From IMG/VR virus record IMGVR_UViG_3300032235_000467: a stretch of DNA of 64,000 nt; one strand, written 5' to 3'. The translations under genes and the position numbers were made by a program. Position 1 is the first letter of the stretch; every line of letters starts with the position of its first letter. Origin of the DNA: a virus. Below are positions 4,118-59,128 of the stretch, piece after piece. The notes beneath the pieces are model-generated. The model was not told the DNA's origin, did not search any database, and worked only from the letters and a program-made list of their open reading frames with translations.

Positions 4118-4180
4118 AAAGTATTACTCTAGATCCTTATATTTATAAATGTCTGTTGGAAAGTGAAAACAGTATAAAAT

Positions 4181-25175: not shown

Positions 25176-25192
25176 TATAAAACAAACACAAC

Positions 25193-27037: not shown

Positions 27038-27339
27038 TGGCCAGATATTCAAACATAAAAGTATTAAAAGACAGTGAGAATAGCAAAAGGTACTATAGGG
27101 CTTCTAAATATCCTGATATAGCTTTTTCTGATACTGACATTTACATTGAGGCAGCTTATGGAGACAGGCTCGATATAATATCTTACGACTACTATAAGTC
27201 CACAGAATACTACTGGATATTATTAGTAGCAAACAATCTCCCAGGGGATAGTATCTTTGTGCCACCAGGCACCCAGTTGAGGATCCCAGAAAACTTAGAT
27301 CAGATATTAGCCGATTATGAAGCACTAAATAGTATATAA
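27037..27339 (+). CDS. LysM-like baseplate protein (gpX/gp53-like)
   Basis: GDRLDIISYDYY....YWIL..AN......G.QLRIP. Confidence 0.8.
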   Translation: MARYSNIKVLKDSENSKRYYRASKYPDIAFSDTDIYIEAAYGDRLDIISYDYYKSTEYYWILLVANNLPGDSIFVPPGTQLRIPENLDQILADYEALNSI

Positions 27340-27344
27340 AAGTT

Positions 27345-30323: not shown

Positions 30324-30329
30324 AAATAT

Positions 30330-30845
30330 ATGTATTATCCTAAATCAGAAATATTAAAAGTAGACTATACATCAGGAAGTGAGTTCTTAATAAAAAGTAC
30401 CTTAGTATTTTATAAGGGAGACTACTATGCTACTAATGATGGAAAGTTCTTCTCAGGAAAAGAGTATAGCCCGTCTACTCAACAACTGGTACCGGTATCT
30501 GATAATATTCAAAACATAAATGAAAAAGAATCATACGGATTTCATTATGCAATGCCATCTGAAGACGATTATTCTAACGGATCGTTCACCAGATATACAA
30601 TAAAAAGAGTAAACAGTGGGTTTGAAACCATATTAGAAGTAGATCAAACTGAACACGAGAGAGCTGTGAAAGATCCCTTGTACTCAGCAGTAAAGTTTTT
30701 CTGGAAAATAACTGGTCCCCTGTACACAACTCCAGAAGGAATACCAGGAATAGTAAACACCAATCAGAAAACTCTAGAAAATTTAGAGAAAAATATACCG
30801 GGTATATCAAATTATTTTACAAATTTAGCACAGTACGCAAAATAA
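30330..30845 (+). CDS. Baseplate-region protein of unknown function
   Basis: 171-aa ORF ending the tail operon. Confidence 0.55.
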   Translation: MYYPKSEILKVDYTSGSEFLIKSTLVFYKGDYYATNDGKFFSGKEYSPSTQQLVPVSDNIQNINEKESYGFHYAMPSEDDYSNGSFTRYTIKRVNSGFETILEVDQTEHERAVKDPLYSAVKFFWKITGPLYTTPEGIPGIVNTNQKTLENLEKNIPGISNYFTNLAQYAK

Positions 30846-30872
30846 CCCTATCTTTGTACAAAGGTTATAAAC

Positions 30873-32210
30873 GTGTATTACATAATAGAGACTGAAGAAC
30901 AGCTTCAGAAATTTTCTACATACGACTTCACTAATTGTATTGTTGATGTAATTTCATCAAACGATAACTGTCATCCTAAACTGGCAGACATCTCCCTGAT
31001 CTATATAAAGCCTTTTAGATCCCGTATGGGATTTATGCTATGTCTTGATCACACAGAAGCGTTTTCTCTTCCTAAAGAAGCTGTAGAGGCCTTTATAATT
31101 AATAATCTTGGCAATATTTACGCTATTGATGCAAAAAGGATGAGATACTTCACTAAAAGAGATAGCGCCTTATACTGCCTTAAAATGGCCAAGTATCTAT
31201 CTACTGGGGAGATAATAGACGAGTCTAAGTTCAATACTACAGCACACAACTTCTTTTGTCAGAAGTATGAATACCGTCCTGACATAAATAAGATCATCCC
31301 TATAGCTAAACACTTTGAAAAGTATGAGAAACTAGCCGCCTCTATAAAGATAGATCAGGCCTGGTTCAAACCTAAGTACTATAAATTGTATGGGGAGGTA
31401 GCCCCTAGACTTTTTAATTCCATCGAATCTGATGGAATTAGCATAGATAATGTAGCATTTTTCAGTCATTATACCCCAAAAGAGGCCTTAATGTCGGTTA
31501 AATCAGACAAAACATACACTCAATATAACCTTTATACTACTACCGGAAGGCCTTCAAATGCCTTCAATGGTATCAATTATGGAGCCATGAACAAGACAGA
31601 TGGCAGTAGAAAGTCATTTGTAGCTGGTAAAGATAGATTGGTTGAGTTTGATTACAGTTCGTATCACATTCGTATATTAGCGTATCATATCGGATATATC
31701 TTTGACGATGAGGATATTCATACTCATTTAGCCAAGTACTATTTTGATACTAAAGACATCACTAAGGAACAATATGAAGAGAGTAAAGGTCTGACTTTTA
31801 AACTGCTGTATACTGATTCTATTGCTGAAGAGGTTAAGGATATACCTTTTTTTGCAAAAGTCAAACAATTTAAAGAGTCATTGTGGAATTTATATAGAAA
31901 ACAGGGATATATTGAAAGTTTTCTATCTAAAAGGCCTATTAGAGGAATAACTTCTAAGACTCAAGTACTCCCTTTTATTTTACAGAACTACGAAACTGAG
32001 AGAAATATCTTTGTTCTTAATGAACTTATTGCCTATCTTTGTAATAAGAACACAAAATTAGTGTTGTATAACTACGATTCTTTCTTATTTGACTATAGTA
32101 AATTGGACGGAAAGCAGACGCTTTGCGACATACAGATGATTTTGGAACAAGACGGATATAAAACATCCTGTAAATACGGCCAGAACTATCAGGAAATGAA
32201 GAATTTATAA
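30873..32210 (+). CDS. Short divergent family A DNA polymerase-like protein
   Basis: TTTGRPSN, motif A FDYSSYH, DIH, motif B SKGLTFKLLY, Q..E, motif C YNYDSF; only 445 aa. Confidence 0.75.
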   Translation: MYYIIETEEQLQKFSTYDFTNCIVDVISSNDNCHPKLADISLIYIKPFRSRMGFMLCLDHTEAFSLPKEAVEAFIINNLGNIYAIDAKRMRYFTKRDSALYCLKMAKYLSTGEIIDESKFNTTAHNFFCQKYEYRPDINKIIPIAKHFEKYEKLAASIKIDQAWFKPKYYKLYGEVAPRLFNSIESDGISIDNVAFFSHYTPKEALMSVKSDKTYTQYNLYTTTGRPSNAFNGINYGAMNKTDGSRKSFVAGKDRLVEFDYSSYHIRILAYHIGYIFDDEDIHTHLAKYYFDTKDITKEQYEESKGLTFKLLYTDSIAEEVKDIPFFAKVKQFKESLWNLYRKQGYIESFLSKRPIRGITSKTQVLPFILQNYETERNIFVLNELIAYLCNKNTKLVLYNYDSFLFDYSKLDGKQTLCDIQMILEQDGYKTSCKYGQNYQEMKNL

Positions 32211-45196: not shown

Positions 45197-45391
45197 ATGA
45201 CGTTAGATGAAATAAATGAAGCAGTAGAACAATGCAACAAAAAGTTAGACGATTACAATATACAGATAGAAGCTTTGTCCAATAAGGATGATCTAATGTC
45301 TGAAGATGTACAGTCACAGTTCGACTACTTGATAAGAGAGATAGAAAAGACAACAGGAGAGCTAGAAGATTTGATAAAACAAATACAATGA
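45197..45391 (+). CDS. Small acidic coiled-coil protein
   Basis: 64-aa ORF in the operon. Confidence 0.5.
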   Translation: MTLDEINEAVEQCNKKLDDYNIQIEALSNKDDLMSEDVQSQFDYLIREIEKTTGELEDLIKQIQ

Positions 45392-46329
45392 AAGAAGCAA
45401 TCGCTTTATCAGAAAGCTTAGCTCCAAGAATCAGAAGAGAAATGGGAGAAGGGCAGAAAAGAATATCCTTCTCCCAATACTCTGTTTATGAGTCGTGCCC
45501 CCACCGTTGGTACCTCACCTACGCTCAGGGACATTATTTATTCTCAGCAAGTATTAATACTGTTTTTGGTACAGCTATACATGAAGCCATACAAAAGTAC
45601 TTGGCTATATTATTTAATGAGTCTGTTAAAGCATCAGATGCTTTTGATATGGTAGAACACTTTGAGAAAGTATTCAGAGATGAATACATTAAAGAAGTTA
45701 CTAATAACGGAGGCGCACATTTCTCTACAAAACAAGAGATGGCAGAGTTTTATCAGGATGGAGTAGAGATACTTAACTACTTTAGAAAGAAGAGAGTTGC
45801 TTATTTTTCTACAAAGGATATGGAATTACTTGGTATGGAAATACCTCTACTAACAGAGATCCGTGATATAACAGATACTTTCTTGTTTAATGGGTATATA
45901 GATTTAGTTCTTAGAGATAAGACTGACGGTACCATTTATATTGAGGATTTCAAAACATCTACTAAAGGCTGGAGAGATTACGAGAAGAAAGATGAGATTA
46001 AACAAGCCCAGATTCTTTTGTACAAGAAATACTTTGCAAAACAATTTGCAGTGGATGAATCTAAGATTGTTCCTAGGTTCCGTATATTAAAAAGAAAGTT
46101 ATATGAAAATGCCGACTTCCCTCAATCCAGAGTACAAGTGCACGAACCTGCTAACGGAAAAGCCAAAGTACACCAAGCTGGACAACGCCTTATTAACTTC
46201 ATAAACGAATGTTTTAATGAAGATGGTACTGCAAGGGAGAAGTATCATACTAAAATATCATCCGGTAACAACTGTAGATTCTGTCCATTTAAAGATAGGC
46301 CGGACCTTTGTGATAAAAAAAATATATGA
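45388..46329 (+). CDS. PD-(D/E)XK Cas4-like exonuclease
   Basis: S.S....CP, G..IH, G.ID, D.KT, Q...Y and C-terminal CRFC...C (four-Cys Fe-S arrangement). Confidence 0.85.
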   Translation: MKEAIALSESLAPRIRREMGEGQKRISFSQYSVYESCPHRWYLTYAQGHYLFSASINTVFGTAIHEAIQKYLAILFNESVKASDAFDMVEHFEKVFRDEYIKEVTNNGGAHFSTKQEMAEFYQDGVEILNYFRKKRVAYFSTKDMELLGMEIPLLTEIRDITDTFLFNGYIDLVLRDKTDGTIYIEDFKTSTKGWRDYEKKDEIKQAQILLYKKYFAKQFAVDESKIVPRFRILKRKLYENADFPQSRVQVHEPANGKAKVHQAGQRLINFINECFNEDGTAREKYHTKISSGNNCRFCPFKDRPDLCDKKNI

Positions 46330-46380
46330 TAGGCTTAATTTTAATGTAATTTTTATATATTTATTATATATAAATACATT

Positions 46381-46575
46381 ATGAAAGATAAATTAAAACT
46401 AACAAGTGTTAAAATACACAAAGATCTATCTGAAAATTTCAAGATAGAAAGCGCAAGAACAGGATTATCATTACAAAAATTTGTAAACAGGACTATTCAT
46501 TTGTACCTAACTGATCCCGAATTTCAAGTTAAAATGTTGACTTACAACAACTTAGCAACTAGTGGAAGTCTATAA
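46381..46575 (+). CDS. Small ribbon-helix-helix-like DNA-binding protein
   Basis: LTSVKI beta-strand followed by two helices; heads the glycosyltransferase operon. Confidence 0.5.
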   Translation: MKDKLKLTSVKIHKDLSENFKIESARTGLSLQKFVNRTIHLYLTDPEFQVKMLTYNNLATSGSL

Positions 46576-46591
46576 CAAATAAAAATAAATA

Positions 46592-48031
46592 ATGAAAGCA
46601 GGTTATATTAAAAAAGAAGACAGGAAGAAAATACTCTTTATAGGAGACGACATTAGGTTTTTCTCAGGTATCGCAACTATCTCCAGGGAATTAGTATTAG
46701 GTACAGCTCATTCATTTAACTACGTTTGTATAGGCGGAGCTATAGATCATCCGGATAAAAATAAGAGAATGGACTTATCACAGTCTACAAATGAAATTGC
46801 CGGTATTCCAGATGCATCAGTTATATTATATCCTACTAATGGATATGGAACTCAAGATCTGATAAGGCAGATGATCAATGTAGAAAAGCCTGATCTACTT
46901 GTATTCATTACTGATCCTAGATACTACGAGTGGCTATTCAGAATAGAACAGGAAATTAGGAAGACAATTCCCATGGTATATATAAACATTTGGGATTGTG
47001 AACCAGCTCCTTTGTATAACAAGAACTATTACAGATCTTGCGACACTCTACTGGCTATTTCCAAACAGACTAAAATACTTAATGAGGTTGTATTAGGAGA
47101 ATATGCAAAAGACAAAACCATTAAATACTTCCCACATGGTATTAATGAAAACAATTTCTACCCAATAAGGGAAGGGCACGAACAGTATTCAAAACTACAA
47201 GCTTTTAAAAACAATCTACTTAAGGATAAAGATTTTGAATTTGTTTTACTGTTCAATAGTAGGAACATCAGAAGAAAGTCTATACCAGATACCATATTAG
47301 CATTCAGGCATTTCTTAGATCAACTGCCCTCAGAAAAAGCAGATAAATGTTGTTTAGTGCTACATACTCACAAAGTAGACGATAATGGTACGGATCTTCC
47401 AGCAGTTATTGATTTATTGATGGGAGACAAAGGAGATCAGATAATATTTTCAAATCCTGGAGAAGGAGTTGAGTATATGAATATGTTATACAATTCTTCG
47501 GATGCTACAGTATTGTTATCTTCTAACGAAGGTTGGGGATTATCTCTTACAGAGTCAATGATGTGCGGTAGAATGATTATTGCAAACGTAACTGGAGGTA
47601 TGCAAGATCAAATGAGGTTTGAAGATGAAAAAGGCAATTGGATTGAGTTTGATGAATCTTTCTGTACTAACCATCTAGGAAGATACAAGAAGTGTGGAGA
47701 GTGGGCTATTCCTGTATTTCCTTGTGGAATAAGCATTCAAGGATCTCCTCCAACTCCTTACATATCAGATGACAGAGTAGACTTCAGAGACGCGTCTAAA
47801 GCTATTATGGAATTATATAACATGGGTAAAGAAGAGAGAGATAACAAAGGATTGAAAGCAAGAGAGTGGGTAACTTCTTCTGAATCTATGATGAGTGCTA
47901 GCAGCATGTCAAAAAACTTCATTGAAGGTATCCAGGAAACTTTAGACAACTGGAAACCTAGAGGCAGATTCCATATTAAAAAAATAGAAGATAGGCCATT
48001 GAAAACTATAAAACATTATATATCTTTGTAA
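46592..48031 (+). CDS. GT-B (GT4-like) glycosyltransferase
   Basis: SG.A, PHGI, RNIRRK, EGWGLSLTE, GGM.D. Confidence 0.88.
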   Translation: MKAGYIKKEDRKKILFIGDDIRFFSGIATISRELVLGTAHSFNYVCIGGAIDHPDKNKRMDLSQSTNEIAGIPDASVILYPTNGYGTQDLIRQMINVEKPDLLVFITDPRYYEWLFRIEQEIRKTIPMVYINIWDCEPAPLYNKNYYRSCDTLLAISKQTKILNEVVLGEYAKDKTIKYFPHGINENNFYPIREGHEQYSKLQAFKNNLLKDKDFEFVLLFNSRNIRRKSIPDTILAFRHFLDQLPSEKADKCCLVLHTHKVDDNGTDLPAVIDLLMGDKGDQIIFSNPGEGVEYMNMLYNSSDATVLLSSNEGWGLSLTESMMCGRMIIANVTGGMQDQMRFEDEKGNWIEFDESFCTNHLGRYKKCGEWAIPVFPCGISIQGSPPTPYISDDRVDFRDASKAIMELYNMGKEERDNKGLKAREWVTSSESMMSASSMSKNFIEGIQETLDNWKPRGRFHIKKIEDRPLKTIKHYISL

Positions 48032-48040
48032 TCAACTGTT

Positions 48041-49324
48041 ATGAATAAACTTACATGTGTTGTTTCTTGCCCAATAGATATTATTTCCGGTTATGGATCT
48101 CGTAGTCGTGATTTTGTAAAAGCTTTGATAAAAGCCAAAGGAGAAGAGTGGGATATAAAAATCCTCTCTCAGAGATGGGGAGAGTGTCCTTACGGAGCTT
48201 TAAGCAGAGATATACCAGAAGATCTAGATTTGATTAATAGAGTAATGCCACAGATGGACACACAACCTGATATCTGGTTTCAGATTACCGTGGCTAATGA
48301 ATTTCAACCTGTAGGTAAAGTTAGTATTGGAGTATCTGCGTTGGTAGAAACTACAATACTTCCGGCTGAGCTACTAGAAGGTTTGAATAGAATGAACTTT
48401 AATATAGTATCATCTGAGTTTGTAAAAGATGTAGCTAATAAGACCAGCTTTGATAAGATTGATCCAAACACTAGGCAAAAGCAAGAGACTATTAACCTAA
48501 CCAAACATCTTGAAGTATTATTTGAAGGTGTGGATACAAACAAGTATAAGAGATTAGAAAAGTCTAACTTTGATCTATCTGAAGTAAAAGAAGAGTTTTG
48601 TTTCTTGACTGTAGCACATTGGCTGACTGGTGATACTGGTGAAGATAGAAAACAACTTACCACTCTTATTAAATCATTCCTTACAGTTTTTAAAGATAAA
48701 AAGAAACGTCCAGCTCTTATTCTTAAAACTAGTTTAGCAGGTTTTAGTATTGTGGAAGAGGAGAAGATACTAGACAGTATAGATATTATTAGAAAAAGTG
48801 TTGGTGGAGATATGCCAAACATCTATCTATTGTATGGCGAGTTGACTGAGGAAGAAATGAATCACTTGTACAACCATGAAAAAGTAAAAGCTTTTGCTCT
48901 GGTAGGCAACGAAGGATTTGGCAGGCCATATCTAGAGTTCTCAGCAGCATCTAGCAAACCTATCATAGCATCTCCATTCAGTGGGCATACTGACTTTCTT
49001 AACGAAGAATATAACATTTTTGTACAAGGTAAGGTAGAACAAATACACCCATCAGCAGCTAATCAGTTTTTGATAAAGGAAGCCAGTTGGTTTAAAGCAG
49101 ATCCTAAATCAGTAGAGGATTCTTTAAAAGCTGTGTATGAAAACTACAACAAGTATATAGACAATGCAAAGAGACAAGGACACCAATCAAGAACTCAGTT
49201 TAGTTTTGATAAAATGGTAGAAAAACTAGCTGAGATACTTGAGAAGAATGTTCCTAAGTTGAGCGTCCCTCAAATGATAAAACTTCCAAAGCTTAAAACC
49301 CGTGGACAGAGGCAAGAAGATTAG
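48041..49324 (+). CDS. GT-B (GT4-like) glycosyltransferase
   Basis: SGYG..SR, EGVD, RK, EGFGRP.LE, SGH.DF. Confidence 0.88.
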   Translation: MNKLTCVVSCPIDIISGYGSRSRDFVKALIKAKGEEWDIKILSQRWGECPYGALSRDIPEDLDLINRVMPQMDTQPDIWFQITVANEFQPVGKVSIGVSALVETTILPAELLEGLNRMNFNIVSSEFVKDVANKTSFDKIDPNTRQKQETINLTKHLEVLFEGVDTNKYKRLEKSNFDLSEVKEEFCFLTVAHWLTGDTGEDRKQLTTLIKSFLTVFKDKKKRPALILKTSLAGFSIVEEEKILDSIDIIRKSVGGDMPNIYLLYGELTEEEMNHLYNHEKVKAFALVGNEGFGRPYLEFSAASSKPIIASPFSGHTDFLNEEYNIFVQGKVEQIHPSAANQFLIKEASWFKADPKSVEDSLKAVYENYNKYIDNAKRQGHQSRTQFSFDKMVEKLAEILEKNVPKLSVPQMIKLPKLKTRGQRQED

Positions 49325-49351
49325 CTCAAAAAAATAAAAAACAAAAATAGC

Positions 49352-49840
49352 ATGGATAGCAAAAGTTTTATAAGTTGGCTAAAGGGTTTTACAGAAGCTT
49401 GTCCAGAGTTTCACCCAACTCCTAAACAGTGGGATAGATTAAAGGAAGTGTTGAACGAAGTAGAGGACTATGATGATAATCCTGGAATAGATGTTGAGAT
49501 TGATGATTGGAAATCAGAACGCGATATATTTAGAAACCCTTCTCACCCTCCTCCTATGGGTCCTTATACAGCCCCTTATTGGCCATTGGGTACTCCAGGA
49601 TGGATACAAAATCCAGGAACTACTTCAGGAATTACAATAATCTCAGGATCAGGCTATATAACAACCTCAGGATCAGGCAACACGTTCACAACCACTGATG
49701 GAACCACTTCAACAACGGTATGGAACGATAAGATGGGATGTTGGCATTACACTAACTATCCTGAAGGATTTGGATACTATACCAATACCACACTGCATAA
49801 AACAACTCCAGAAGAAACAAAAAAACAATTATTAGATTAA
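49352..49840 (+). CDS. Hypothetical protein with Pro/Thr/Gly low-complexity region
   Basis: F..WLKGF...PT.KQW..LKE.L N-terminal motif followed by a low-complexity tail. Confidence 0.6.
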   Translation: MDSKSFISWLKGFTEACPEFHPTPKQWDRLKEVLNEVEDYDDNPGIDVEIDDWKSERDIFRNPSHPPPMGPYTAPYWPLGTPGWIQNPGTTSGITIISGSGYITTSGSGNTFTTTDGTTSTTVWNDKMGCWHYTNYPEGFGYYTNTTLHKTTPEETKKQLLD

Positions 49841-49841
49841 T

Positions 49842-50285
49842 ATGCAAGATCAATTAACAACCTGCCGAAAATGTAAGAGTCCATTATGTTATGAACGCCA
49901 TAATGATGGAGTAGTAAGCTGGGACTGTTTACAATGTGGATTCACTACAAATACTTTATTACTTCAAAACACAGAAACTGTAGTGTCTTATGAGTCTATG
50001 ATTCCAAACTTGTTTAGAGACATTAAGTATTTAGATGAGGATGGATTTGTATGGTACCCGACAACTATAACTAAAGAGGGGGTAGGTATTGTATTTGCGG
50101 ACGGTACGTCTAAAGATAGTTGGAAGTGGGCATTTGCTCCTCATGTGCCAGTAACTGAGGAAGAGAAGGAGAGGTTCAAGAAAGCAGATGGAACTTACCA
50201 CCAGTACAAGACAGACATGAAACATGTTCTTCATTTTGATCAAGAATATTTCTCAAGAGCTTTAGAGGCCGCAGGATTAATTTAA
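49842..50285 (+). CDS. Zinc-ribbon-containing protein
   Basis: CRKC...CLQCGF. Confidence 0.65.
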   Translation: MQDQLTTCRKCKSPLCYERHNDGVVSWDCLQCGFTTNTLLLQNTETVVSYESMIPNLFRDIKYLDEDGFVWYPTTITKEGVGIVFADGTSKDSWKWAFAPHVPVTEEEKERFKKADGTYHQYKTDMKHVLHFDQEYFSRALEAAGLI

Positions 50286-50289
50286 TATC

Positions 50290-50913
50290 ATGGTACCTAT
50301 ATCATATTGCATAACGACTCATAATGAAGGAGAAGCTTATATAAGACCCCTCCTAGAAAGATTGTTAAAGCATCTACAACCGGAAGATGAGATTGTAGTA
50401 GTAGATGATTTCTCTACAGACGAGTCTACAGTGGCCGTATTAGAGGAGTATAGAGATAAAGTTAATTTGTATTTCAATTCATTAGATAATAATTTTGCAG
50501 CACATAAAAACTTTGCTAAATCTAAATGTACAAAGGATTACATATTCTTTATAGATGCTGATGAAAATTTACATGAGAATCTATTGATAACTCTAAAAGA
50601 AATTTTACTTAATAACCTGAACGTAGATCTATTCTTAGTGCCAAGGATAAACGTAGTGCCAGGGCTTACCCAAAATCATATCCAGAAGTGGGGATGGCAG
50701 GTTAATGATAAAGGATACATCAATTATCCAGATCTACAAACTAGAATTGTAGTAAATAAACCTGAGATAGTGTGGGAGAATAAAGTGCATGAAAGATTGG
50801 TAGGACACAGCACACACGCAGCTCTTCCATTTGAGACAGAGGACTATTGTCTTCTCCACATAAAGAGTATAAAAAGGCAAGAAGAACAGAATAACTTCTA
50901 CAACACTTTGTAA
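50290..50913 (+). CDS. GT-A (GT2) glycosyltransferase
   Basis: I.T.NE, VVDD.STD, IDADE (DxD), VHE. Confidence 0.9.
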   Translation: MVPISYCITTHNEGEAYIRPLLERLLKHLQPEDEIVVVDDFSTDESTVAVLEEYRDKVNLYFNSLDNNFAAHKNFAKSKCTKDYIFFIDADENLHENLLITLKEILLNNLNVDLFLVPRINVVPGLTQNHIQKWGWQVNDKGYINYPDLQTRIVVNKPEIVWENKVHERLVGHSTHAALPFETEDYCLLHIKSIKRQEEQNNFYNTL

Positions 50914-51833
50914 TGAATATACTATTTCACTCTAATCAATTAGGTATTAGGGGAACTGAAGTAGCTTTGTACGACTACGCTCACTACAATGAAACCATAC
51001 TAGGTAACGTATCTTATATAGCAGCTCCGGCTAATTCAGATATGTCTGCTTTAGAGAAGTTTAAAAGTAGATTTGGCAATAGAGTCATATTGTATAATTC
51101 TTTTGGAGAACTATTGTTTTCTTCTTCGTATAGAATAGACGCTGCTTATTTTATAAAAGCCGGATTTAATGACGGCATACTATGTCCTGGTGTTAAAAAT
51201 ATTGTACATGCAGTGTTTGATGCATCAGACAAACATGGAGATGTATATGTAGCAGTGAGTGAGTGGCTAGGTAAAAAACACAATGTAGACTATCTTCCTC
51301 ACATTGTATCCTTACCTGATATAAAAGAAGACTTTAGGGATTTTATTGGAGCTTCTGACAATGATATTGTATTTGGAAGATATGGAGGTTATGATCAATT
51401 TGATGTTTCTTATTTAGGGGAGGTTATAAAAAAGGCTGCAGAAGAAGGAATTAAGTTCTTGTTAATGAATACAAAGCAATTTAATTTCCAACATCCGAAT
51501 GTAATATATACGGAAGCTAATACAGACCTAAATACAAAGGCTGCATTCATTAATACATGTGACGCTATGCTGCATGGTAGAACTGATGGTGAATCCTTTG
51601 GATTAGCAGTGGCGGAGTTTTTGCATCAGAATAAACCAGTAGTTACCACCCCTCAGTGTAGAGATAAAAATCATATACAAGTTCTTGGTGATAAAGGGTT
51701 GTATTATAATAATGGCAATGAATTATATACTATACTGACTTCTTTTGAAAAGAAAGATTATAATGTTAAACCTTTGGTAGATCAGTTTAAACCTGAGGTA
51801 GTTATGCAAAAATTTAAAAATTTAATATATTAA
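50913..51833 (+). CDS. GT-B glycosyltransferase
   Basis: RGTEVA, GRYGG, GESFGLAVAEF. Confidence 0.82.
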   Translation: MNILFHSNQLGIRGTEVALYDYAHYNETILGNVSYIAAPANSDMSALEKFKSRFGNRVILYNSFGELLFSSSYRIDAAYFIKAGFNDGILCPGVKNIVHAVFDASDKHGDVYVAVSEWLGKKHNVDYLPHIVSLPDIKEDFRDFIGASDNDIVFGRYGGYDQFDVSYLGEVIKKAAEEGIKFLLMNTKQFNFQHPNVIYTEANTDLNTKAAFINTCDAMLHGRTDGESFGLAVAEFLHQNKPVVTTPQCRDKNHIQVLGDKGLYYNNGNELYTILTSFEKKDYNVKPLVDQFKPEVVMQKFKNLIY

Positions 51834-51836
51834 ATC

Positions 51837-52508
51837 ATGGACAAAGTGTTTGTTAATTTCCCGAGAGTGTTAAAGTATTTTACTCCTGTATCATATCTAG
51901 ATGTTGGGGTTTGTAAAGGACATGCTATACCTTATATACTAGGCAATCTTACTTCTATTAAAAAAGTAGAAATGATAGAAGCCTGTAGACTGCACGAGGA
52001 TGATTTAAAAGAGGTAAGCCTTAAATATAATATACCTTATAAAATAGAAGTTTTATCAGATAAGATAAAAGAAGTTGATTTTTATTTAAATGGGGCAGGT
52101 AGAGAGTCAACTGGTCCTGGTAATTCATATTATAAGGAAGACACTCCTCATTATAATGGTACTCCTGTAGAAAAAAGAGTTACAAATACTTTAGATAATA
52201 TATACGATGATACAGAGTCTTTTGATTTGATTAAGATGGATACTCAAGGAAGTGAGCTTGATATTATAAAAGGCGGCTTAAAATTAATATCTAAAGCAAA
52301 AGGAATAATACTAGAGGAGAATATTGTTCCTTTTAATTTTGGAGCTCCATTACATGCTGAAATAAAATCTTATATGGAAAGTATAGGATTTATATTAGTA
52401 GATATACTAGATGATAAAAATTATGGTATAGAAAACTCAAAAGGAGAGCAAGTGCCACATCATGAAATAGATACTTTATATATAAGAAAGTCATTATTAA
52501 ATGAGTAG
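51837..52508 (+). CDS. FkbM-family methyltransferase
   Basis: LDVG...G, IEA, TLD, DLIKMDTQGSEL.I.KG. Confidence 0.85.
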   Translation: MDKVFVNFPRVLKYFTPVSYLDVGVCKGHAIPYILGNLTSIKKVEMIEACRLHEDDLKEVSLKYNIPYKIEVLSDKIKEVDFYLNGAGRESTGPGNSYYKEDTPHYNGTPVEKRVTNTLDNIYDDTESFDLIKMDTQGSELDIIKGGLKLISKAKGIILEENIVPFNFGAPLHAEIKSYMESIGFILVDILDDKNYGIENSKGEQVPHHEIDTLYIRKSLLNE

Positions 52509-52560
52509 TATGACTGAGTATTTAATTATCTCACGGCAAAGCTCTAGTAAATAAAAAAAT

Positions 52561-53214
52561 ATGATGTTCTCAGTTATAATACCAACAATGTTCAGGTGTA
52601 TCGATACTACAAATGAACTATTAGCTAATTTATATGAAGATCCTTTTGTATCTGAAGTTATATTAATAGATAATACTGAAAATTATAATGATACTATAAG
52701 AATACTGAACAATGATAAGCTTAAAATAAAGTCTCAAAGCAAAAACATATATGTAAACCCTGCTTGGAATCTAGGAGTGGCTACAGCAAAAGAGGATTAT
52801 ATTGCCATAATAAATGATGATGTAACAATACCAGAACAGATATTCACAGGATTATCTCAAGCTAATATAAAAGATTTAGGAGTAATAGGAGCATTTCATC
52901 CATTAATACAACAAGTAGAAGTTCCAACAAGATTTACAATAACCCAGTTTAATTTATTAGAGATTTACGAAAGAACTTGGGGATTTGGCATCTTTATGGT
53001 TATGTATAAGGATCACTATGTTAACATACCGGAAGAAATGAAAATATGGTGCGGTGATGATTACCTGTACCATCAAAACATTTTAGCCAAAAGAATAAAC
53101 TATGTAATGGCATTTCCTGTACAAACTAGAATGAGTGTAACTTCAAATGATTCTGCATTTGATGAAATAAAAAATAAAGACGTAGAGATATACAATTTAA
53201 AATATAAAATATGA
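52561..53214 (+). CDS. GT-A (GT2-like) glycosyltransferase
   Basis: SVIIPT, LIDN, N..VNPAWN.G, INDD, W.GDD. Confidence 0.82.
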   Translation: MMFSVIIPTMFRCIDTTNELLANLYEDPFVSEVILIDNTENYNDTIRILNNDKLKIKSQSKNIYVNPAWNLGVATAKEDYIAIINDDVTIPEQIFTGLSQANIKDLGVIGAFHPLIQQVEVPTRFTITQFNLLEIYERTWGFGIFMVMYKDHYVNIPEEMKIWCGDDYLYHQNILAKRINYVMAFPVQTRMSVTSNDSAFDEIKNKDVEIYNLKYKI

Positions 53215-53825
53215 AAAGGTACGAAATTATAAACAGGTTCATAAAAGAGAGAGGGTATAAAGATTATTTAGAGATAGGAGTGTTTACCGGACAATGTATG
53301 AGGGAGATTATTGCAGAAAATAAAACTGGAGTAGATCCAGGATCAGAAGGACACATAGCTGAAGAAGTTACCCATCCAATGACATCAGACCAGTTCTTTA
53401 GCAGTATTAAAGGATCTGATAAAATGTATGATATTATATTCATAGACGGCCTTCATCACTCGTATCAAGTGGATGTTGATATAGAAAATGCATTGTCTCA
53501 TCTTAAAGATAATGGAGTTATAATATTGCATGATTGTAATCCTGAACAGGAAGTATATACTTTAGTACCAAGGGTGAGTCCCATATGGCACGGTGATGTG
53601 TACAAATCTGTTTTAAGATTCAGATCTAAAAATATTCATAGCTTCTTTACTATTGATACAGACTGCGGTTGTGGTGTTATATACAAAGACTATAAAGGAG
53701 ACTCTCAAAATGATGTAGAAGAGTATAAGAAAGGATTACATTCGTGGAGTTATTTCTTTGATAATAAATCAAAGTTATTAAATTTAATAAGCGTAGAAGA
53801 TTTTACTAAACTGAATTTAAATTAA
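53211..53825 (+). CDS. Class I SAM-dependent methyltransferase
   Basis: YLEIGV..G, GVDP, DIIFIDGLH, HD. Confidence 0.85.
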   Translation: MKRYEIINRFIKERGYKDYLEIGVFTGQCMREIIAENKTGVDPGSEGHIAEEVTHPMTSDQFFSSIKGSDKMYDIIFIDGLHHSYQVDVDIENALSHLKDNGVIILHDCNPEQEVYTLVPRVSPIWHGDVYKSVLRFRSKNIHSFFTIDTDCGCGVIYKDYKGDSQNDVEEYKKGLHSWSYFFDNKSKLLNLISVEDFTKLNLN

Positions 53826-53838
53826 CTAAAGATAATAC

Positions 53839-54561
53839 ATGAGTAAACTTAATCTATCAATAGGAATATTAACTTGGAATGCACACAATACTCTGAGGAA
53901 CACACTAGAGAGTTATAAAAAATCTGGTCTACTAGACATGGTAAATGATGTCTGTATTTTTGCACAGGAGGGAAAAGAGTTAGACTACAAACTAGCGTCT
54001 GATTATGGAATAGACATAATACTTAGCCCCACTAACGTAGGTATAGGAGTGGGATTAACTACTTTAGCACACGCAGCAGAGACCGATAATATACTACTGC
54101 TAGAAAATGATTGGATCATTCTACCTGAATACTTCTCTACAGTATATAGCGAACTGTCAAAAGGTATCGATATGATTGAGAAAAGTAAGGCAGACGTAGT
54201 AAAGTTCAGAAGCCGGAGAGTTCCAGGAGATCCTTTATACACTTTGCAATTTGCGAATCGAGAATTTGATAGCCCCAAGCATTTGTTTGAGTGTACACAT
54301 TGGAGAGAGAATCCGGATCAGGACTTTCCTGAACATATAAGTAAAGACTCAGAAACAGGACTTTACTATGCTAAATCAAAATACGCTAATCAAACAAATA
54401 ATCCTTGTATTTATAATAAAGAATTTTATATTAAAAACATATCCCCCTTTTCCGGAGATGGTGTACAACTAGAAGAAAAGATATTTGATTGGTGGGCCGA
54501 TCAAGATTTCACAGTTGCGCATGGAGAAGGATTATTCACCCATTATAGAGTTGATCGATGA
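53839..54561 (+). CDS. Putative GT-A glycosyltransferase
   Basis: IGILTW, N.GIG.G, LLENDW (DxD-like), NNP and a C-terminal H. Confidence 0.65.
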   Translation: MSKLNLSIGILTWNAHNTLRNTLESYKKSGLLDMVNDVCIFAQEGKELDYKLASDYGIDIILSPTNVGIGVGLTTLAHAAETDNILLLENDWIILPEYFSTVYSELSKGIDMIEKSKADVVKFRSRRVPGDPLYTLQFANREFDSPKHLFECTHWRENPDQDFPEHISKDSETGLYYAKSKYANQTNNPCIYNKEFYIKNISPFSGDGVQLEEKIFDWWADQDFTVAHGEGLFTHYRVDR

Positions 54562-55190
54562 AACAATTAACGCTTGTTATTTTATTAGTATTTTTAGGAA
54601 TCACCGCATTTACACAGCATACAGTACTATTAAAGCATAAGCAATACGAAACCAACTTTGATACGTCTTTAAAGTACCCTAAAAAAGTTTATTGGGTGGT
54701 GACTAAGAAATCATTAACTTGCGTTACCAAATATCCAAGATCAAACAAATTTGTAGCCGATCCTCTTCTGCCTAAACAGACTGATTTGGATAAAGATTAT
54801 GTTAAGTCTGGGTATGACAGAGGGCATAATTTTACAGCAGCCGATGCTGCTTGTGATTCCACATCTATGAGAGAATCTTTTTTCTTTTCTAATATGACAC
54901 CCCAGCACCCAACAGTAAATAGAGGAGACTGGAAACAACTAGAAGAGTTTACAAGAGAGCTGTCATTAAAGCATGATTCAGTAAAAGTATGGTCAGGATC
55001 TTGGGGAGTTCAAACTAAGGCAGGAAGAGTATCAGTACCTACAGATTGTTGGAAAGTTATATACATAGTTAGTACTAAAGAGTGGATGGCATTTCATTTC
55101 TTTAATACAAGATCTAATACTTTAGGATTAAAATCTCATGAAGTATCTGTAGACTTCATAGAAAAGCAAACGGGTTATAAATTTAAATAA
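54558..55190 (+). CDS. Secreted DNA/RNA non-specific endonuclease (NucA/EndoG family)
   Basis: Signal peptide; SGYDRGH, SF..SNM.PQ...NRG.W..LE, VP...WK. Confidence 0.9.
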   Translation: MKQLTLVILLVFLGITAFTQHTVLLKHKQYETNFDTSLKYPKKVYWVVTKKSLTCVTKYPRSNKFVADPLLPKQTDLDKDYVKSGYDRGHNFTAADAACDSTSMRESFFFSNMTPQHPTVNRGDWKQLEEFTRELSLKHDSVKVWSGSWGVQTKAGRVSVPTDCWKVIYIVSTKEWMAFHFFNTRSNTLGLKSHEVSVDFIEKQTGYKFK

Positions 55191-55197
55191 TGTTATT

Positions 55198-56049
55198 ATG
55201 GTTTTTGATTGTTTTACTTTCTTCAATGAACTAGATCTACTTGAGTTTAGGCTAAGGTTATTGTCAGATGTAGTAGATAAATTTGTTATATGTGAATCCA
55301 ACTACACACATAGTGGTAAACTAAAGCCATATTATTTTGAGGAGAACAAAAGTAGGTATGCTAAATGGATAGATAAAATAATATACCTACCTATAGAACA
55401 ATCTGTAGAAGGTTTAAACTTTGATAAAGTAACTACATACACTCCTACAAATGGTTCTTGGATATTAGAAAACCAACAAAGGATGGCACTGCTATATGCT
55501 GGGGAGATTATGAAGGATGATGACTTTGTATTAGTAGGAGACTTGGATGAAATACCTAACCCAGAAGCTATAATAGCATTAGAACAAAGTGGTATAATAG
55601 TAAACGGTATAAACAATGCAGTTTCTTTTCCAATGATATTCCATTACTATTATATGAATTGTCAGATGGAAGGGTATGATAGAATTTGGAATGGAACGGT
55701 TGCATGTTTTGCAGACTACTTTAAACAGGTCGGACCTCAATATTTTAGAGATCATAGGAACCATTTTACCCGAATACCAGTAAATGCAGGATACCATTTC
55801 TCATATCTGGGAGGTCCTGATAAAGTTAAAACAAAGATTGAATCATTTGCACACACTGAATTTAATAGGCCGGATATAACATCTGACGTTAATATATCCA
55901 ATGCTGTTAACAATGGACAGGATATATTCAAAAGACCTGGAATATCTTATAAGGTAGTGCCTATCGAAAGCTATCCAGAACCTATACGATCCCTAATGCT
56001 TGAGTATCCACAATTCATTAAAAATGAAGTTACAGTCCCTAACTCCTAA
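55198..56049 (+). CDS. GT17-family (GnT-III-like) glycosyltransferase
   Basis: DCF.FFNELDLL..R...L...VD.FVI.E...THSG..K, E..QR, D.DEIP, G.HFSY, K..SF.H.E. Confidence 0.85.
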   Translation: MVFDCFTFFNELDLLEFRLRLLSDVVDKFVICESNYTHSGKLKPYYFEENKSRYAKWIDKIIYLPIEQSVEGLNFDKVTTYTPTNGSWILENQQRMALLYAGEIMKDDDFVLVGDLDEIPNPEAIIALEQSGIIVNGINNAVSFPMIFHYYYMNCQMEGYDRIWNGTVACFADYFKQVGPQYFRDHRNHFTRIPVNAGYHFSYLGGPDKVKTKIESFAHTEFNRPDITSDVNISNAVNNGQDIFKRPGISYKVVPIESYPEPIRSLMLEYPQFIKNEVTVPNS

Positions 56050-56854
56050 GTCTTGCTTCGCAACCATAGCTACTATTACTGAAGATAGTATGGATAAGCT
56101 GAATTTATTTATGCAGTATAATGCTGACTTGATAAAACAGTTCCCACACGTCATTATCTCCACAAATAGCTTGGATGACACTTCAATGCATACAATAAAC
56201 CTATACCATAATACATGGCGTAAATTGGTCCCTAATTGCATTATACTGAACTCTACTGTAAATAGAGGACATATGTTCGGTACTATAGACCTGGAAGAGG
56301 CTATATTAAAGTATATCAAGAGAGAACTGCCTGAAGTTCAATATTTATGGAAGTCGATGGATGATGTTATAACTACTACCGATCTACTAAATTTAGAAGT
56401 AGAAGAGGCTGAGTTTTACTATATTCCGGGATTTAGCTATGAATCAATACAGAAAGCAGGTGGAAAAGAGAATCTACGTAAAGTTTATGAAGTGTTTGAC
56501 TCAGGGTTTTACACTCCTCAAACTACTTTTTTTATTCTCGATGTCACTAATATTGATACTATTTACGGGAACGATATCGATACTAAGATTAATATTTATC
56601 AGGAAGTTAAGGCACGGAACCCGTCTATAAAGCCTTGGGAAGTTCCATTTAATACTAAGTTTGATTGTGAGACTCACTTGGGTAGGACTACCAAAGATCT
56701 AAGAAAATATTGTTTAATTGAGGACCAATTCGAGGAACTTCTCGAAATGGTGTACTATCACAGAATGGGAGACCCATCCCATAAGAATATATATTTCTAC
56801 AAACCAGGAGTCTGTCATTACCATTTTTATAAAGATTTGATATATAACGTATAA
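56024..56854 (+). CDS. Unknown protein, possibly a divergent GT-A glycosyltransferase
   Basis: NRGH..G and KSMDD resemble GT-A elements; last gene of the glycan cluster; in-frame ATG 56024. Confidence 0.45.
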   Translation: MKLQSLTPKSCFATIATITEDSMDKLNLFMQYNADLIKQFPHVIISTNSLDDTSMHTINLYHNTWRKLVPNCIILNSTVNRGHMFGTIDLEEAILKYIKRELPEVQYLWKSMDDVITTTDLLNLEVEEAEFYYIPGFSYESIQKAGGKENLRKVYEVFDSGFYTPQTTFFILDVTNIDTIYGNDIDTKINIYQEVKARNPSIKPWEVPFNTKFDCETHLGRTTKDLRKYCLIEDQFEELLEMVYYHRMGDPSHKNIYFYKPGVCHYHFYKDLIYNV

Positions 56855-56880
56855 TAACTATCTTTGCTATAGATATTTAT
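56836..56880 (+). promoter_or_regulatory. Host-type promoter plus ATATTTAT motif
   Basis: TTTG - 19 nt - TATCTTTG (56859), then ATATTTAT (56873) just before the WYL gene. Confidence 0.6.
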
Positions 56881-56884
56881 ATGC

Positions 56885-57676
56885 GTGAGAAACTTAATTA
56901 ATTTATTACTAGAAGCCCCTATGGACGATGCTACAGCACAGAAGATGCTATCTTCTGGTAAGCAAGTGTCTATATACTATCAAGGGGATAACGATTCCAA
57001 AAAAGGCTGGAGAAAGATAGAACCTGTTCGCATAGAAGGCGAAGGTGATGATAAGGTAATGGTAGCATACGAGGTAGAGGGGCTAGGCAAGAAGGCAGTC
57101 CTCAAAAAGTATGTACAGAAGAAAATAACTAACTGGAACGTACTTAGTACAACCCCTGCTACTATAGCTGCTAAGGATAAAGAGAAAGAAAAGAAGACAC
57201 CAAAAAAGCCTGGAGCTAAGCCTCCCACCCCACAAAAAAGAAGTTTAGGTACTCAAGGAGATGACTTCTGTGATGCAATAACTAACAAAAGGATAGTTAA
57301 GATGTATTATAAAGGAGACGAAGAAGAAGCTCCTGGATGGCGTACAGATGTGCAGGCAGTGTGCTACGGTTCTCGTAAAGGAGTTAAGTATGTCAGGGCT
57401 TGGGTAGGCGCAGGTAAATCAGTAAGTGCAGACAAAAGTCCAGAAAAGAAAGCATTGCCAGGGTGGAGATTTTTCCGTCAAGACAGAATACAGAAATGGG
57501 AAGTAGACGCTACTAAAACATTCAAAGCCCCTCCTAAGGCAGACTTTAATCCTAAAGGAGATAAACTTATGGATACCATATTCTGTATATCAGACTTCGC
57601 ACCAGACGCACCACCAACAGCATTGCAAGAAGCTAGTATGCTATCAGCAATAAAGGAGGCTATCAATATTTTTTAA
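56885..57676 (+). CDS. Tandem WYL-like domain protein
   Basis: Two copies of V..YY.GD.....GWR...P/A....G......AY/AW...; the second ends GWRFFRQDRI..W; Lys/Pro linker between them. Confidence 0.7.
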   Translation: MRNLINLLLEAPMDDATAQKMLSSGKQVSIYYQGDNDSKKGWRKIEPVRIEGEGDDKVMVAYEVEGLGKKAVLKKYVQKKITNWNVLSTTPATIAAKDKEKEKKTPKKPGAKPPTPQKRSLGTQGDDFCDAITNKRIVKMYYKGDEEEAPGWRTDVQAVCYGSRKGVKYVRAWVGAGKSVSADKSPEKKALPGWRFFRQDRIQKWEVDATKTFKAPPKADFNPKGDKLMDTIFCISDFAPDAPPTALQEASMLSAIKEAINIF

Positions 57677-57679
57677 ACT

Positions 57680-58042
57680 ATGAATATGAACCAGAAAAGA
57701 AATAAGGAGGTTAAGAAAAAGAGAACGGTGCCTTTTCTGAATTATACCGTCAGAGACTTCTCTGATTACAGTGAGATCTCTTCTATGCCAGAGACTCAAA
57801 AAATAGTATTTGATAATCTTATAGATGCGATAAACTTTAGTATACAAAAGAAAAAAGAGTATGCTGAAATTTTTAAAGTAAGTGAAGATAACTCCGTATC
57901 TTTAAGTAAAGATAATTGGGTTCCTGCTGTAGAGAAAGCAATAGAATTCTACGCAGAGCTTGAGGATTATGAGAAGTGTAAACAGTGTAAAGATATAATA
58001 CAAACAGTAAGTTATGAGAAAGGAATTCGATCCACAGAATAG
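57680..58042 (+). CDS. Hypothetical protein with UVR-like EDYEKC motif
   Basis: AIEFY...EDYEKC...KD; resembles 59483..59821. Confidence 0.6.
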   Translation: MNMNQKRNKEVKKKRTVPFLNYTVRDFSDYSEISSMPETQKIVFDNLIDAINFSIQKKKEYAEIFKVSEDNSVSLSKDNWVPAVEKAIEFYAELEDYEKCKQCKDIIQTVSYEKGIRSTE

Positions 58043-58427
58043 CCACGATCAGAATGTTAAAGTAGCTATAGATAAAATAATAGGGCAAGAGACTTCATTC
58101 AGAAAAGTAAAGAAGACTCAAGACGATCATAAAAGAATACTGTTCAATAGAATAATAGAGTCCATTATAGTAGCTGAAGAAAGATCTGTAATGTTAGATG
58201 AGGCTCACAGCATGGACATGTCTAAGTATAATCAAGTATTCTTTGATGTAATCACAGATTTCCTATCGTTTAGTTTTAACAAACAGCAAGTAAACCTAAT
58301 AAACTTTTTCTTGTATGACAGGTATTGTACAGATGGATCTGTACTAGATCTGATAGATGATGACGGCAATGTAGTACCACTAAACACAGCAAGTGATCTG
58401 TGGTATCTAGTAAGTAAAAACGCGTAG
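58014..58427 (+). CDS. Hypothetical protein
   Basis: 137-aa ORF overlapping the previous gene. Confidence 0.6.
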   Translation: MRKEFDPQNSHDQNVKVAIDKIIGQETSFRKVKKTQDDHKRILFNRIIESIIVAEERSVMLDEAHSMDMSKYNQVFFDVITDFLSFSFNKQQVNLINFFLYDRYCTDGSVLDLIDDDGNVVPLNTASDLWYLVSKNA

Positions 58428-58429
58428 TT

Positions 58430-59128
58430 ATGGAAATCAAATCGTTTAAAAAGCAGAAGTCCAACAGAGGACAAGACTTAAATATAGAAAGGCAAGCTAT
58501 TGAAAGGGCCATGCGTGATACCATGTCTAATAAAGCCGCTGCTAAATCCATAGGAGTATCATTTAAGACTTACAAGAAGTATGCCCAGATGTATCGTAAT
58601 GCAGAGGGTATAACCCTATACGATCTACATAAGAACCAAGCTGCTAAAGGTATACCCAAGTTCGGTAAGAGAAGACATGATAAAGCTTCCATCATAGATA
58701 TAATGGAGGGGAAAGTATCTAAAAGCTTCGTATCAATTAAGATATTAAAGCATCAGATTATACAGCACGGTATATTAAAAGAAGAATGTTGTAGGTGCGG
58801 ATTCAAAGAGCAGAGAGTGTTAGATTACAAAACACCTTTGATAATGAACTTCAGAGATGGAGATAAGAAGAACTGGGCTCTAGATAACGTAGAGTTCCTA
58901 TGTTATAACTGTTTTTTTCTTTGCGTAGGAGAAGTATTTACAAACAAACAACTCTCTGTAATAGAGGACTATACAGATTTAAGATCTGTCAATATAGATC
59001 TAGACCTGCCGGTAAAACATGAACAGGCTATAAAGGAATCCATTAACCTAGAAAATAAGAATATTTATAGTAGTGATGAGAGGTCGGAGGACTATGGAAG
59101 TGATTTGATATCTACATACAGGAAGTGA
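58430..59128 (+). CDS. HTH plus degenerate HNH/zinc-finger protein
   Basis: SNKAAAKSIGVSFKTYKKY (HTH-like); C..CG...DGD..N...DN...LC.NC with the usual His residues replaced. Confidence 0.65.
   Translation: MEIKSFKKQKSNRGQDLNIERQAIERAMRDTMSNKAAAKSIGVSFKTYKKYAQMYRNAEGITLYDLHKNQAAKGIPKFGKRRHDKASIIDIMEGKVSKSFVSIKILKHQIIQHGILKEECCRCGFKEQRVLDYKTPLIMNFRDGDKKNWALDNVEFLCYNCFFLCVGEVFTNKQLSVIEDYTDLRSVNIDLDLPVKHEQAIKESINLENKNIYSSDERSEDYGSDLISTYRK

Follow-up and report, generated by a model that had tools for sequence, protein, structure and literature searches.

A glycosyltransferase operon with a conserved core and a hypervariable island in a clade of aquatic myoviruses

Introduction

Virus-encoded clusters of glycan genes are already known. 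In chloroviruses, the work of De Castro, Speciale and Van Etten is said to describe a conserved inner glycan with strain-variable decorations, and mimiviruses, in studies by Notaro et al. from 2021-2022, reportedly decorate their surface fibrils by means of lineage-variable multi-gene clusters that combine glycosyltransferases (GTs) with amino- and deoxy-sugar pathways. The mycobacteriophage systems of Freeman et al. 2023 are said to use few GTs. According to PMC12619734, which cites Freeman et al. 2023, mycobacteriophage-encoded GTs modify the phages' own virion proteins (capsid and tail tube), and papers on aquatic phages mention many glycosyltransferases without resolving them (PMC12619734, PMC12801897). 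Here we describe an operon of 10.5 kb at positions 46381-56854 of IMG/VR virus record IMGVR_UViG_3300032235_000467 (64,000 nucleotides; this whole stretch of DNA is called the window), in which eight GT-like genes and two methyltransferase genes are divided between a conserved core and a hypervariable island. It is this core-plus-island split of a phage clade that is new; the architecture, the breadth of the clade and the independence of the operon from fibre genes were not found described in the literature searched.

The window comes from an uncultured freshwater tailed phage. In protein similarity, the named phages nearest to it are Microcystis phage Mel-JY01 as well as vB_FspM_immuto, a phage of Flavobacterium (hereafter immuto), with Rhodothermus phage RM378 more remote. 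A preliminary description of the window had proposed that the cluster builds a multi-step, O-methylated glycan on virion proteins, possibly on the Ser/Thr-rich fibres of the same phage, and had named DNA glycosylation and host surface modification as alternatives.

Conserved core and hypervariable island

The operon comprises fifteen closely packed genes on the + strand, with intergenic gaps of -26 to 52 nt (Table 1). This bears out the co-directional cluster of the preliminary description and adds four genes to it: a ribbon-helix-helix (RHH)-like gene, two small genes (starting at 49352 and 49842) and an Endonuclease_NS gene. The 10.5-kb region gave zero matches when compared by megablast with 50,697 phage records.

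Relatives of the first GT-B gene (GT-B1) number over 600 in IMG/VR, and synteny was read in 80 loci. In all 80 the same core stands behind a PD-(D/E)XK nuclease gene, namely the RHH-like protein, GT-B1, a second GT-B (GT-B2), a zinc-ribbon protein and a family 2 GT (GT2a), with a gene of the 49352 type sometimes interposed between GT-B2 and the zinc-ribbon gene. Homologues of the nuclease directly 5' of the operon amounted to 77 open reading frames (ORFs) across these loci, plus those of immuto and Mel-JY01; for the RHH gene there were 75 ORFs (identity 35-100%) and for the zinc-ribbon gene 62. The core order is the same in immuto and Mel-JY01, while RM378 has a looser version whose parts lie near one another without that order (GT-B1, a second GT-B, ribonucleotide reductase and a GT2a homologue). 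GT-B1 of immuto is 57% identical to that of the window, and GT2a has homologues at 46% identity in immuto, 37% in Mel-JY01 and 26% in RM378 (p016). Core-bearing phages thus have hosts in Bacteroidota, Cyanobacteriota and Rhodothermota. Among 185,579 species genomes, GT-B1 had 6 full-length matches, all on contigs of metagenome-assembled genomes, and the family is essentially phage-only. The core is ancient.

The island that follows the core behaves in the opposite manner. Across 48 loci its 386 proteins fall into 169 families, 94 of which occur at a single locus. Of 1128 pairs of loci, 675 have no family in common, and the pairwise Jaccard index has a median of 0, while core proteins remain 56-92% identical. 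When 139 island proteins taken from 21 loci were sorted by Pfam family, the largest groups were epimerases/dehydratases (24), GDP-mannose 4,6-dehydratases (20), RmlD-like reductases (20) and DegT aminotransferases (14), followed by GT2 (10), Methyltransf_24 (10), FkbM (8) and the fucosyltransferase families GT10 (5) and GT11 (4); nucleotidyl transferases, thiamine pyrophosphate enzymes and TylF methyltransferases were also present. The islands of the relatives are a toolkit for complex glycans, and immuto likewise has a large one. Several islands stop at homologues of the window genes at 57680-59128, which form a conserved right flank in these relatives, indicating that the island is a bounded variable bay.

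Replacement of island cassettes was observed directly at the level of strains. Relatives whose GT-B1 is 91-92% identical to that of the window (L003, L006, L007) lack its FkbM gene and have other genes in that place, and the island gene GT2b is only 54-79% identical in relatives whose flanks are ~90% identical. Another sample yielded a 46-kb contig that runs collinear with the window at ~95% identity and departs from it in three places: the GT2b stretch (52495-53200) is exchanged for 1564 other letters, the RHH gene is followed by 310 additional letters, and the 49352 gene has a different middle. Parts of the island were without contig cover in sequencing run X4, which carries no evidential weight.

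Enzymes encoded by the operon

The preliminary description had counted three GT-B genes, two or three GT-A genes, one GT17-like gene, one possible further GT and two methyltransferases, and each of these finds a counterpart here. An AlphaFold2 (AF2) model of GT-B1 (predicted local distance difference test score, pLDDT, 89.8) had top Foldseek matches that were all retaining GT4 enzymes, and its EX7E motif (E313-E321) is invariant in 46 sequences. The best solved relative by both sequence and fold is B736L of chlorovirus NY-2A (3oy2), with many giant-virus GTs next in BFVD; other GT4 fold neighbours include 6kih, 3mbo and 3c4q, as well as BshA, MshA, sucrose-phosphate synthase and GlgM. GT-B2 is a divergent GT4-like protein that aligns with GT-B1 (hhalign 96.8%) and conserves EX7E (E291-E299) in 46 sequences. 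A GtfA/GtfB serine-rich-repeat pair was considered for these two proteins and rejected, as there was no DUF1975 match and GT-B2 keeps the catalytic EX7E; GtfA is also absent among the top GT-B1 fold matches listed. GT-B3 is the weakly backed member of the three: its EX7E segment, GESFGLAIAEF, is invariant in 7 sequences, and hhalign (75%) covers the EX7E region only.

The GT-A genes comprise three of family GT2, of which GT2a and GT2b lie above the Pfam gathering cut-off for Glycos_transf_2 (23.3 bits) and GT2c just under it. The predicted GT17-like protein, whose Pfam family is that of beta-1,4-mannosyl-glycoprotein GlcNAc-transferases, reaches 93.5 bits where the cut-off is 26, aligns with positions 75-299 of the 348 in the profile, and has relatives in just 7 phage records. 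The last gene of the operon, for which an alignment favours the ATG at 56024 as the likely start, is probably the eighth GT: its AF2 model (pLDDT 81.3) had 379 Foldseek matches at E<=0.001, the best 50 of which are all GT-A, and among its fold matches are glycogenin, B3GalT5, UGGT and ABO transferases. Sequence searches of the PDB returned nothing useful for GT-B2, the GT17-like protein or either methyltransferase, and an NCBIfam scan of the operon proteins gave matches that were all far below cut-offs.

Among the remaining genes, the RHH-like protein is probably the operon regulator. The zinc-ribbon protein falls into unnamed phage clusters only in the protein Atlas. The protein at 49352-49840 belongs to a family found at 22 of 53 distinct loci (length 56-163 amino acids), and not in immuto or many other relatives; its middle varies from 0 to ~110 residues and is replaced or shortened even among strain contigs, making it a candidate for a dedicated glycan carrier or adaptor. 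The Endonuclease_NS protein has an N-terminal hydrophobic, signal-like segment (Kyte-Doolittle value 2.04 at residue 6) and is an island passenger, because its homologue in immuto sits elsewhere, beside ribonucleotide reductase.

Apart from this nuclease, no operon protein contains a hydrophobic membrane segment. Across the 48 loci, not one of the 386 island proteins contains more than a single hydrophobic 19-mer, and thus none is a multi-pass membrane protein. No flippase, polymerase or initiating transferase was found among the 25 most frequent families of the 139 island proteins, so that the membrane proteins that define a Wzx/Wzy- or ABC-dependent polysaccharide locus are missing. Within the window, the absence of flippase, polymerase and nucleotide-sugar synthesis genes noted in the preliminary description holds for the top 25 of the 31 families in the rest of the stretch. 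With soluble enzymes and no genes for export, assembly would take place on an acceptor that can be reached from the cytoplasm.

Transcription unit and genomic context

The motif ATATTTAT occurs 22 times in the window against 9.9 expected, with 20 copies on the + strand, and is a predicted phage promoter element. Because it flanks the operon on both sides, it would bracket one transcription unit. Of 64 distinct relatives, 49 (immuto among them) retain it upstream of the RHH gene, at -19 to -38, whereas the spacer on either side of it diverges. The preliminary description had likened the motif heading the operon to that of the structural genes; the motif is real, and it also stands 5' of the gene that leads the replication module (32231). 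It therefore does not mark late genes only, and was rejected as evidence of late timing. A scan for sigma-70 promoters and terminators stayed at chance level. In the form (T)ATATTTATA(T/A), an element lies 10-45 nt before many + strand gene starts in the structural and replication blocks (positions 4139, 12614, 15145, 16524, 18822, 20023, 21866, 22915, 32231, 46357, 56873, 59828, 60351 and 61923) and is probably the main promoter element of the phage.

All sizeable ORFs of the window are on the + strand. PHROG and Pfam scans placed a replication block that encodes a gp32-like single-stranded DNA-binding protein, a RecA/UvsX-like recombinase, a 5'-3' exonuclease, DnaB, ribonucleotide reductase, a family-A DNA polymerase, GroES/GroEL and the PD-(D/E)XK nuclease, and the phage is apparently a lytic myovirus that encodes replication machinery of its own. 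Four large ORFs (22938-32210; 745, 614, 992 and 445 amino acids) that separate this block from the tail genes have no PHROG match. Directly 3' of the operon, a WYL-domain protein (56885-57676) has a ATATTTAT motif of its own.

Table 1. Coordinates of the operon genes and of other features placed in the window
Feature	Position	Strand	Part	Evidence and remarks
Giant Gly-Ser/Thr fibres	3-3311 and 6937-11637	+		PHROG and Pfam scans
Tail sheath	16571-18817	+		PHROG and Pfam scans; further tail genes also placed
PD-(D/E)XK nuclease	45388-46329	+	conserved left flank	PDDEXK_1 9.2e-21; itself no glycan enzyme
ATATTTAT motif heading operon	46357-46364	+		24 nt before first gene
RHH-like protein, 64 amino acids	46381-46575	+	core	weak Omega_Repress match, 0.007
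GT-B1, GT4-type retaining	46592-48031	+	core	Glycos_transf_1 1.3e-9; phrog_2170 7.9e-20
GT-B2, divergent GT4-like	48041-49324	+	core	phrog_2170 6.8e-14; weak in Pfam
Small accessory protein	49352-49840	+		conserved 38-residue N-terminus, hypervariable Ser/Thr/Gly/Asn-rich middle, conserved LL(N)D tail
Zinc-ribbon protein, 147 amino acids	49842-50285	+	core	N-terminal CxxC...CxxC
GT2a, GT-A family 2	50290-50913	+	core	Glycos_transf_2 4.5e-20, 72.7 bits
GT-B3, short GT4-like	50913-51833	+	island	Pfam 0.0047; weak support
FkbM-family methyltransferase	51837-52508	+	island	Methyltransf_21 5.4e-13; TIGR01444 3.7e-8
GT2b	52561-53214	+	island	Glycos_transf_2 9e-8, 32.7 bits; replacement hot spot
Class I S-adenosylmethionine methyltransferase	53211-53825	+	island	Methyltransf_24 4.6e-10
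GT2c, probable GT-A	53839-54561	+	island	Glycos_transf_2 1.3e-4, 22.4 bits
Non-specific DNA/RNA endonuclease	54558-55190	+	island	Endonuclease_NS 6.7e-41
GT17-like glycosyltransferase	55198-56049	+	island	Glyco_transf_17 1.7e-26
GT-A-fold protein	56024-56854	+	island	no Pfam family; AF2 and Foldseek; longer reading begins 56000
ATATTTAT motif heading WYL-domain gene	56873-56880	+		marks operon end

Acceptor of the glycan

The core is kept across three host phyla, and therefore the acceptor should belong to the phage and not to the host envelope. The island is hypervariable even among near-identical strains, and therefore its product should be an exposed, recognised surface structure. The explanation that we favour, although we would put it slightly below an even chance, is that a protein intrinsic to the phage, probably one of the virion, is glycosylated step by step in the cytoplasm, the site of virion assembly, and so would receive a strain-specific outer glycan.

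In this scheme, whose acceptor, order of steps, sugars and sugar-borne methyl groups we infer, the glycan would be assembled stepwise inside the infected cell, directly on a soluble acceptor intrinsic to the phage, most likely one or more virion proteins. The core, with two retaining GT4-type enzymes and one GT2 together with the zinc-ribbon protein and the RHH regulator, would lay down a conserved inner part. The island (GT-B3, GT2b, GT2c, the GT17-like and GT-A-fold proteins, and the FkbM and Methyltransf_24 enzymes) would extend and methylate it into a strain-specific outer glycan. The window island would draw on nucleotide sugars of the host, while relatives would bring their own pathways for GDP-6-deoxyhexose and amino sugars. 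Of the glycan suggested in the preliminary description, the multi-step, soluble and probably O-methylating machine is supported and the tie to the Ser/Thr-rich fibres is not.

Several points weigh against glycosylation of a virion protein. No conserved Ser/Thr-rich virion protein common to the clade was identified, and the operon lies in the replication and nucleotide-metabolism region, away from the structural genes, under a promoter-like motif that leaves late expression unproven. Because phage DNA arabinosyltransferases are GT4-like and share the fold matches 6kih, 3mbo and 3c4q (PMC13326640), the fold of GT-B1 is silent on the acceptor. Peripheral GTs of the cytoplasm that use lipid-linked intermediates of the host are soluble too, and the lack of membrane proteins is compatible with host glycans as well.

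The last of these points leads to the possibility that the soluble GTs, working at the inner face of the membrane, alter lipid-linked intermediates of the host's O-antigen, capsule or exopolysaccharide. The flippase and ligase of the host would then export the product, and infected cells would acquire a changed surface, which might, for instance, block superinfection or keep progeny off debris. Clusters of GTs in cyanophages have been proposed to be such host-surface modifiers (PMC12801897), the island content resembles O-antigen loci, and the best named matches of the operon proteins, which are polysaccharide and glycolipid enzymes (HpsN/HpsE, HepE, PimB', TuaG and monoglucosyl-diacylglycerol synthase), all far below cut-offs, point the same way. 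However, the core is common to phages of three host phyla with very different envelopes, the GT-B1 family is not on cellular chromosomes, and an initiating transferase, flippase, polymerase or multi-pass membrane protein was present in none of 48 islands. Lysogenic seroconversion is also inapplicable to an apparently lytic myovirus. We therefore regard remodelling of the host envelope as unlikely, while taking it seriously.

A soluble acceptor of another kind, whether a non-structural protein of phage or host, a small molecule or a free oligosaccharide, would accommodate the same enzymes, because sequence fixes no acceptor and the GT4 neighbours of GT-B1 include BshA, MshA, sucrose-phosphate synthase and GlgM. 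A small-molecule product would, however, give no reason for the diversification of the outer enzymes among strains, and we consider this proposal rather unlikely.

The preliminary description was right that the fibres of the window phage carry very many Ser/Thr residues. Their ORFs (492-3311 and 6937-11637) are 50-51% Ser+Thr with 0% Pro and contain 166 and 286 G[ST][STA]G steps, respectively, so the genome that encodes the operon also encodes hundreds of potential acceptor residues. That the operon exists to glycosylate these giant Gly-Ser/Thr collagen-like fibres was examined by co-occurrence in nine larger relatives, a small sample in which all carry the operon core. Both gene sets were present together in only two of the nine (the close relative G003 and Mel-JY01). 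The other seven have no Gly-Ser/Thr fibre, among them the complete genomes immuto, G005, G006 and G007, which possess the core and a large island; in G009, the fibre query found the head domain outside the repeats and nothing else. In this sample the operon and the fibres are thus largely distributed independently, the outcome that the preliminary description had named as refuting its proposal. The fibre genes also lie ~35 kb from the operon and appear to have a different partner, as a TibC/Aah-type heptosyltransferase (TIGR04414) scores above cut-off only in G003 and Mel-JY01 and adjoins the fibre genes in both. Among the operon proteins, TIGR04414 had zero matches. The correlation of fibres with TibC was perfect in the first five genomes and became less clean with G007, which has a sub-threshold TibC-like gene and no Gly-Ser/Thr fibres. 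The Gly-Ser/Thr fibres may be one acceptor in the window phage, but the operon is not kept for their sake, and a machine dedicated to them is improbable. As a separate observation, the fibres of G008 (L090:4583-12107), which also matched the fibre query, have ordinary Gly-Pro/Asn-Gln collagen repeats with 11% Ser+Thr, so that the repeat chemistry is swapped within the clade.

The remaining alternative, that some or all of the GTs add sugar to a modified base as a defence against restriction, as in T-even phages, RB69/DLP3 and TET-linked clusters, can be judged by the bases available. Known phage DNA glycans sit on hydroxylated pyrimidines produced by ThyA-family enzymes or by a cytosine methyltransferase with a TET-like dioxygenase (PMC13326640). 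There is no ThyA-family gene in the window, nor in the complete genomes of Mel-JY01, G005 and G007, which carry the core; a TET/JBP search returned no match, with its control also silent. The sole ThyA-family gene of the near relative G004 keeps L143, D169 and N177 and is a canonical thymidylate synthase by that pattern (PMC13326640). In a published analysis of virion DNA from immuto by liquid chromatography with ultraviolet and mass spectrometric detection, dA, dC and dT were canonical, 7-formylaminomethyl-7-deazaguanine (fdPreQ1) had taken the place of all G, and no glycosyl nucleoside was reported (10.1101/2023.04.13.536721), and yet immuto has the syntenic core and a large island. A Pfam TGT search was uninformative, as the profile missed even the annotated DpdA of immuto.

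A short ThyA-family gene lies 2-10 kb 5' of the operon in seven of the 80 loci, including those of G006 and G009. This 211-amino-acid gene (L089:1426-2061 in G006; also L052, L056, L066, L073, L078 and L027) encodes Asp at the position of E. coli N177, has genes for dCMP deaminase and dUTPase as neighbours, and shares 45% identity with genes of Bacteroides phages whose annotation is dCMP hydroxymethylase. Its product resembles such an enzyme, and phages of this sub-clade may have hydroxymethyl-cytosine DNA, in which case some transferases might serve DNA there. The core cannot depend on a hydroxylated base, because most members lack the enzyme. The position of the operon, in a DNA-metabolism region directly 3' of the PD-(D/E)XK nuclease, recurs in another form in RM378, where the GT-B pair comes after a 5'-3' exonuclease-like gene and before ribonucleotide reductase, with the GT2a homologue just beyond, and this would suit a role in DNA, as would the GT4-like fold shared with phage DNA glycosyltransferases. 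Mono- to tri-saccharides on DNA do exist, but the sugars of known phage DNA glycans reach three at most (10.1101/2023.12.21.572611), whereas eight GTs and two methyltransferases, with the deoxy- and amino-sugar pathways of the relatives, exceed any described DNA glycan. DNA glycosylation is unlikely for this lineage, and as an account of the operon we hold it very improbable.

Three observations on these relatives are recorded here for their own sake. Immuto (NC_055915, 18607-37015) encodes a full set for 7-deazaguanine modification of DNA (FolE, QueD, QueE, QueC, QueF, DpdA and a formyltransferase). The thymidylate synthases of G004 (L084:12782-13897) and immuto (26884-28155) carry an insertion of at least ~45 residues between the fold halves, giving 371 and 423 amino acids against ~265-315 in typical enzymes. 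G004 also encodes, in a row at L084:7552-9413, a YceI-like protein, a protein with a histidine-kinase-type ATPase domain and a response-regulator receiver protein.

Discussion

If the product of the operon is attached to a virion protein, the locus can be viewed in a broader manner. We suggest, with less assurance than we give to the glycosylation itself, that a large clade of aquatic myoviruses possesses a virion serotype locus, in which the three-enzyme core would prime a phage protein and the O-antigen-like island, swapped by recombination, would give each strain its own glycan coat. More than 600 metagenomic contigs belong to the clade, which has been cultured on Flavobacterium and Microcystis and has a more loosely related phage on Rhodothermus. 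The coat would be methylated and made of deoxy- or amino-sugars, and it would be exchanged even between strains that are ~95% identical. If this reading is true, tailed phages, too, would have as a general and ancient trait the diversification of surface glycans that is known from bacteria and giant viruses. Many environmental phages would then carry strain-specific glycans on their virions, which could affect adsorption, stability, grazing and recognition, and such glycans would escape host-range prediction based on sequence. The split between core and island offers a concrete handle on these questions, with a cultured phage (immuto) and a conserved gene (GT-B1). It also separates three things that had been lumped together: this operon, the TibC-type system of the Gly-Ser/Thr fibres, and true glycosylation of DNA.

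Compared with known systems, the operon shares with phage DNA glycosylation (the alpha- and beta-GTs of T4, RB69/DLP3 and TET-linked clusters) a GT4-like GT-B placed among DNA-metabolism genes. It differs in that neither the window nor its near relatives have a base-hydroxylating enzyme, in its surplus of GTs, and in the unglycosylated bases of immuto. Bacterial O-antigen and capsule loci are similar in having conserved flanks around a hypervariable set of GT, sugar-nucleotide and methyltransferase genes that is swapped by recombination; unlike them, the operon encodes no phosphoglycosyl transferase, Wzx, Wzy, ABC transporter or multi-pass membrane protein. From the mimivirus clusters it is set apart by the domain of its hosts and its type of virion, and by a window island without the sugar-synthesis genes that the islands of its relatives do have. 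As in mycobacteriophages, the GTs are phage-encoded and, in the proposed scheme, would act on the phage's own virion proteins; the present operon, however, places eight GTs and two methyltransferases in the replication region and combines a clade-wide core with a hypervariable island. The chlorovirus capsid machinery (A064R, A111/114R and A075L of PBCV-1; B736L of NY-2A) offers a likeness in several respects, as it also relies on soluble viral GTs and methyltransferase activity working in the cytoplasm with no need of host export. The present system differs from it in belonging to a bacterial tailed phage rather than an algal giant virus, and in having its genes in one operon, where core and island are clearly delimited.

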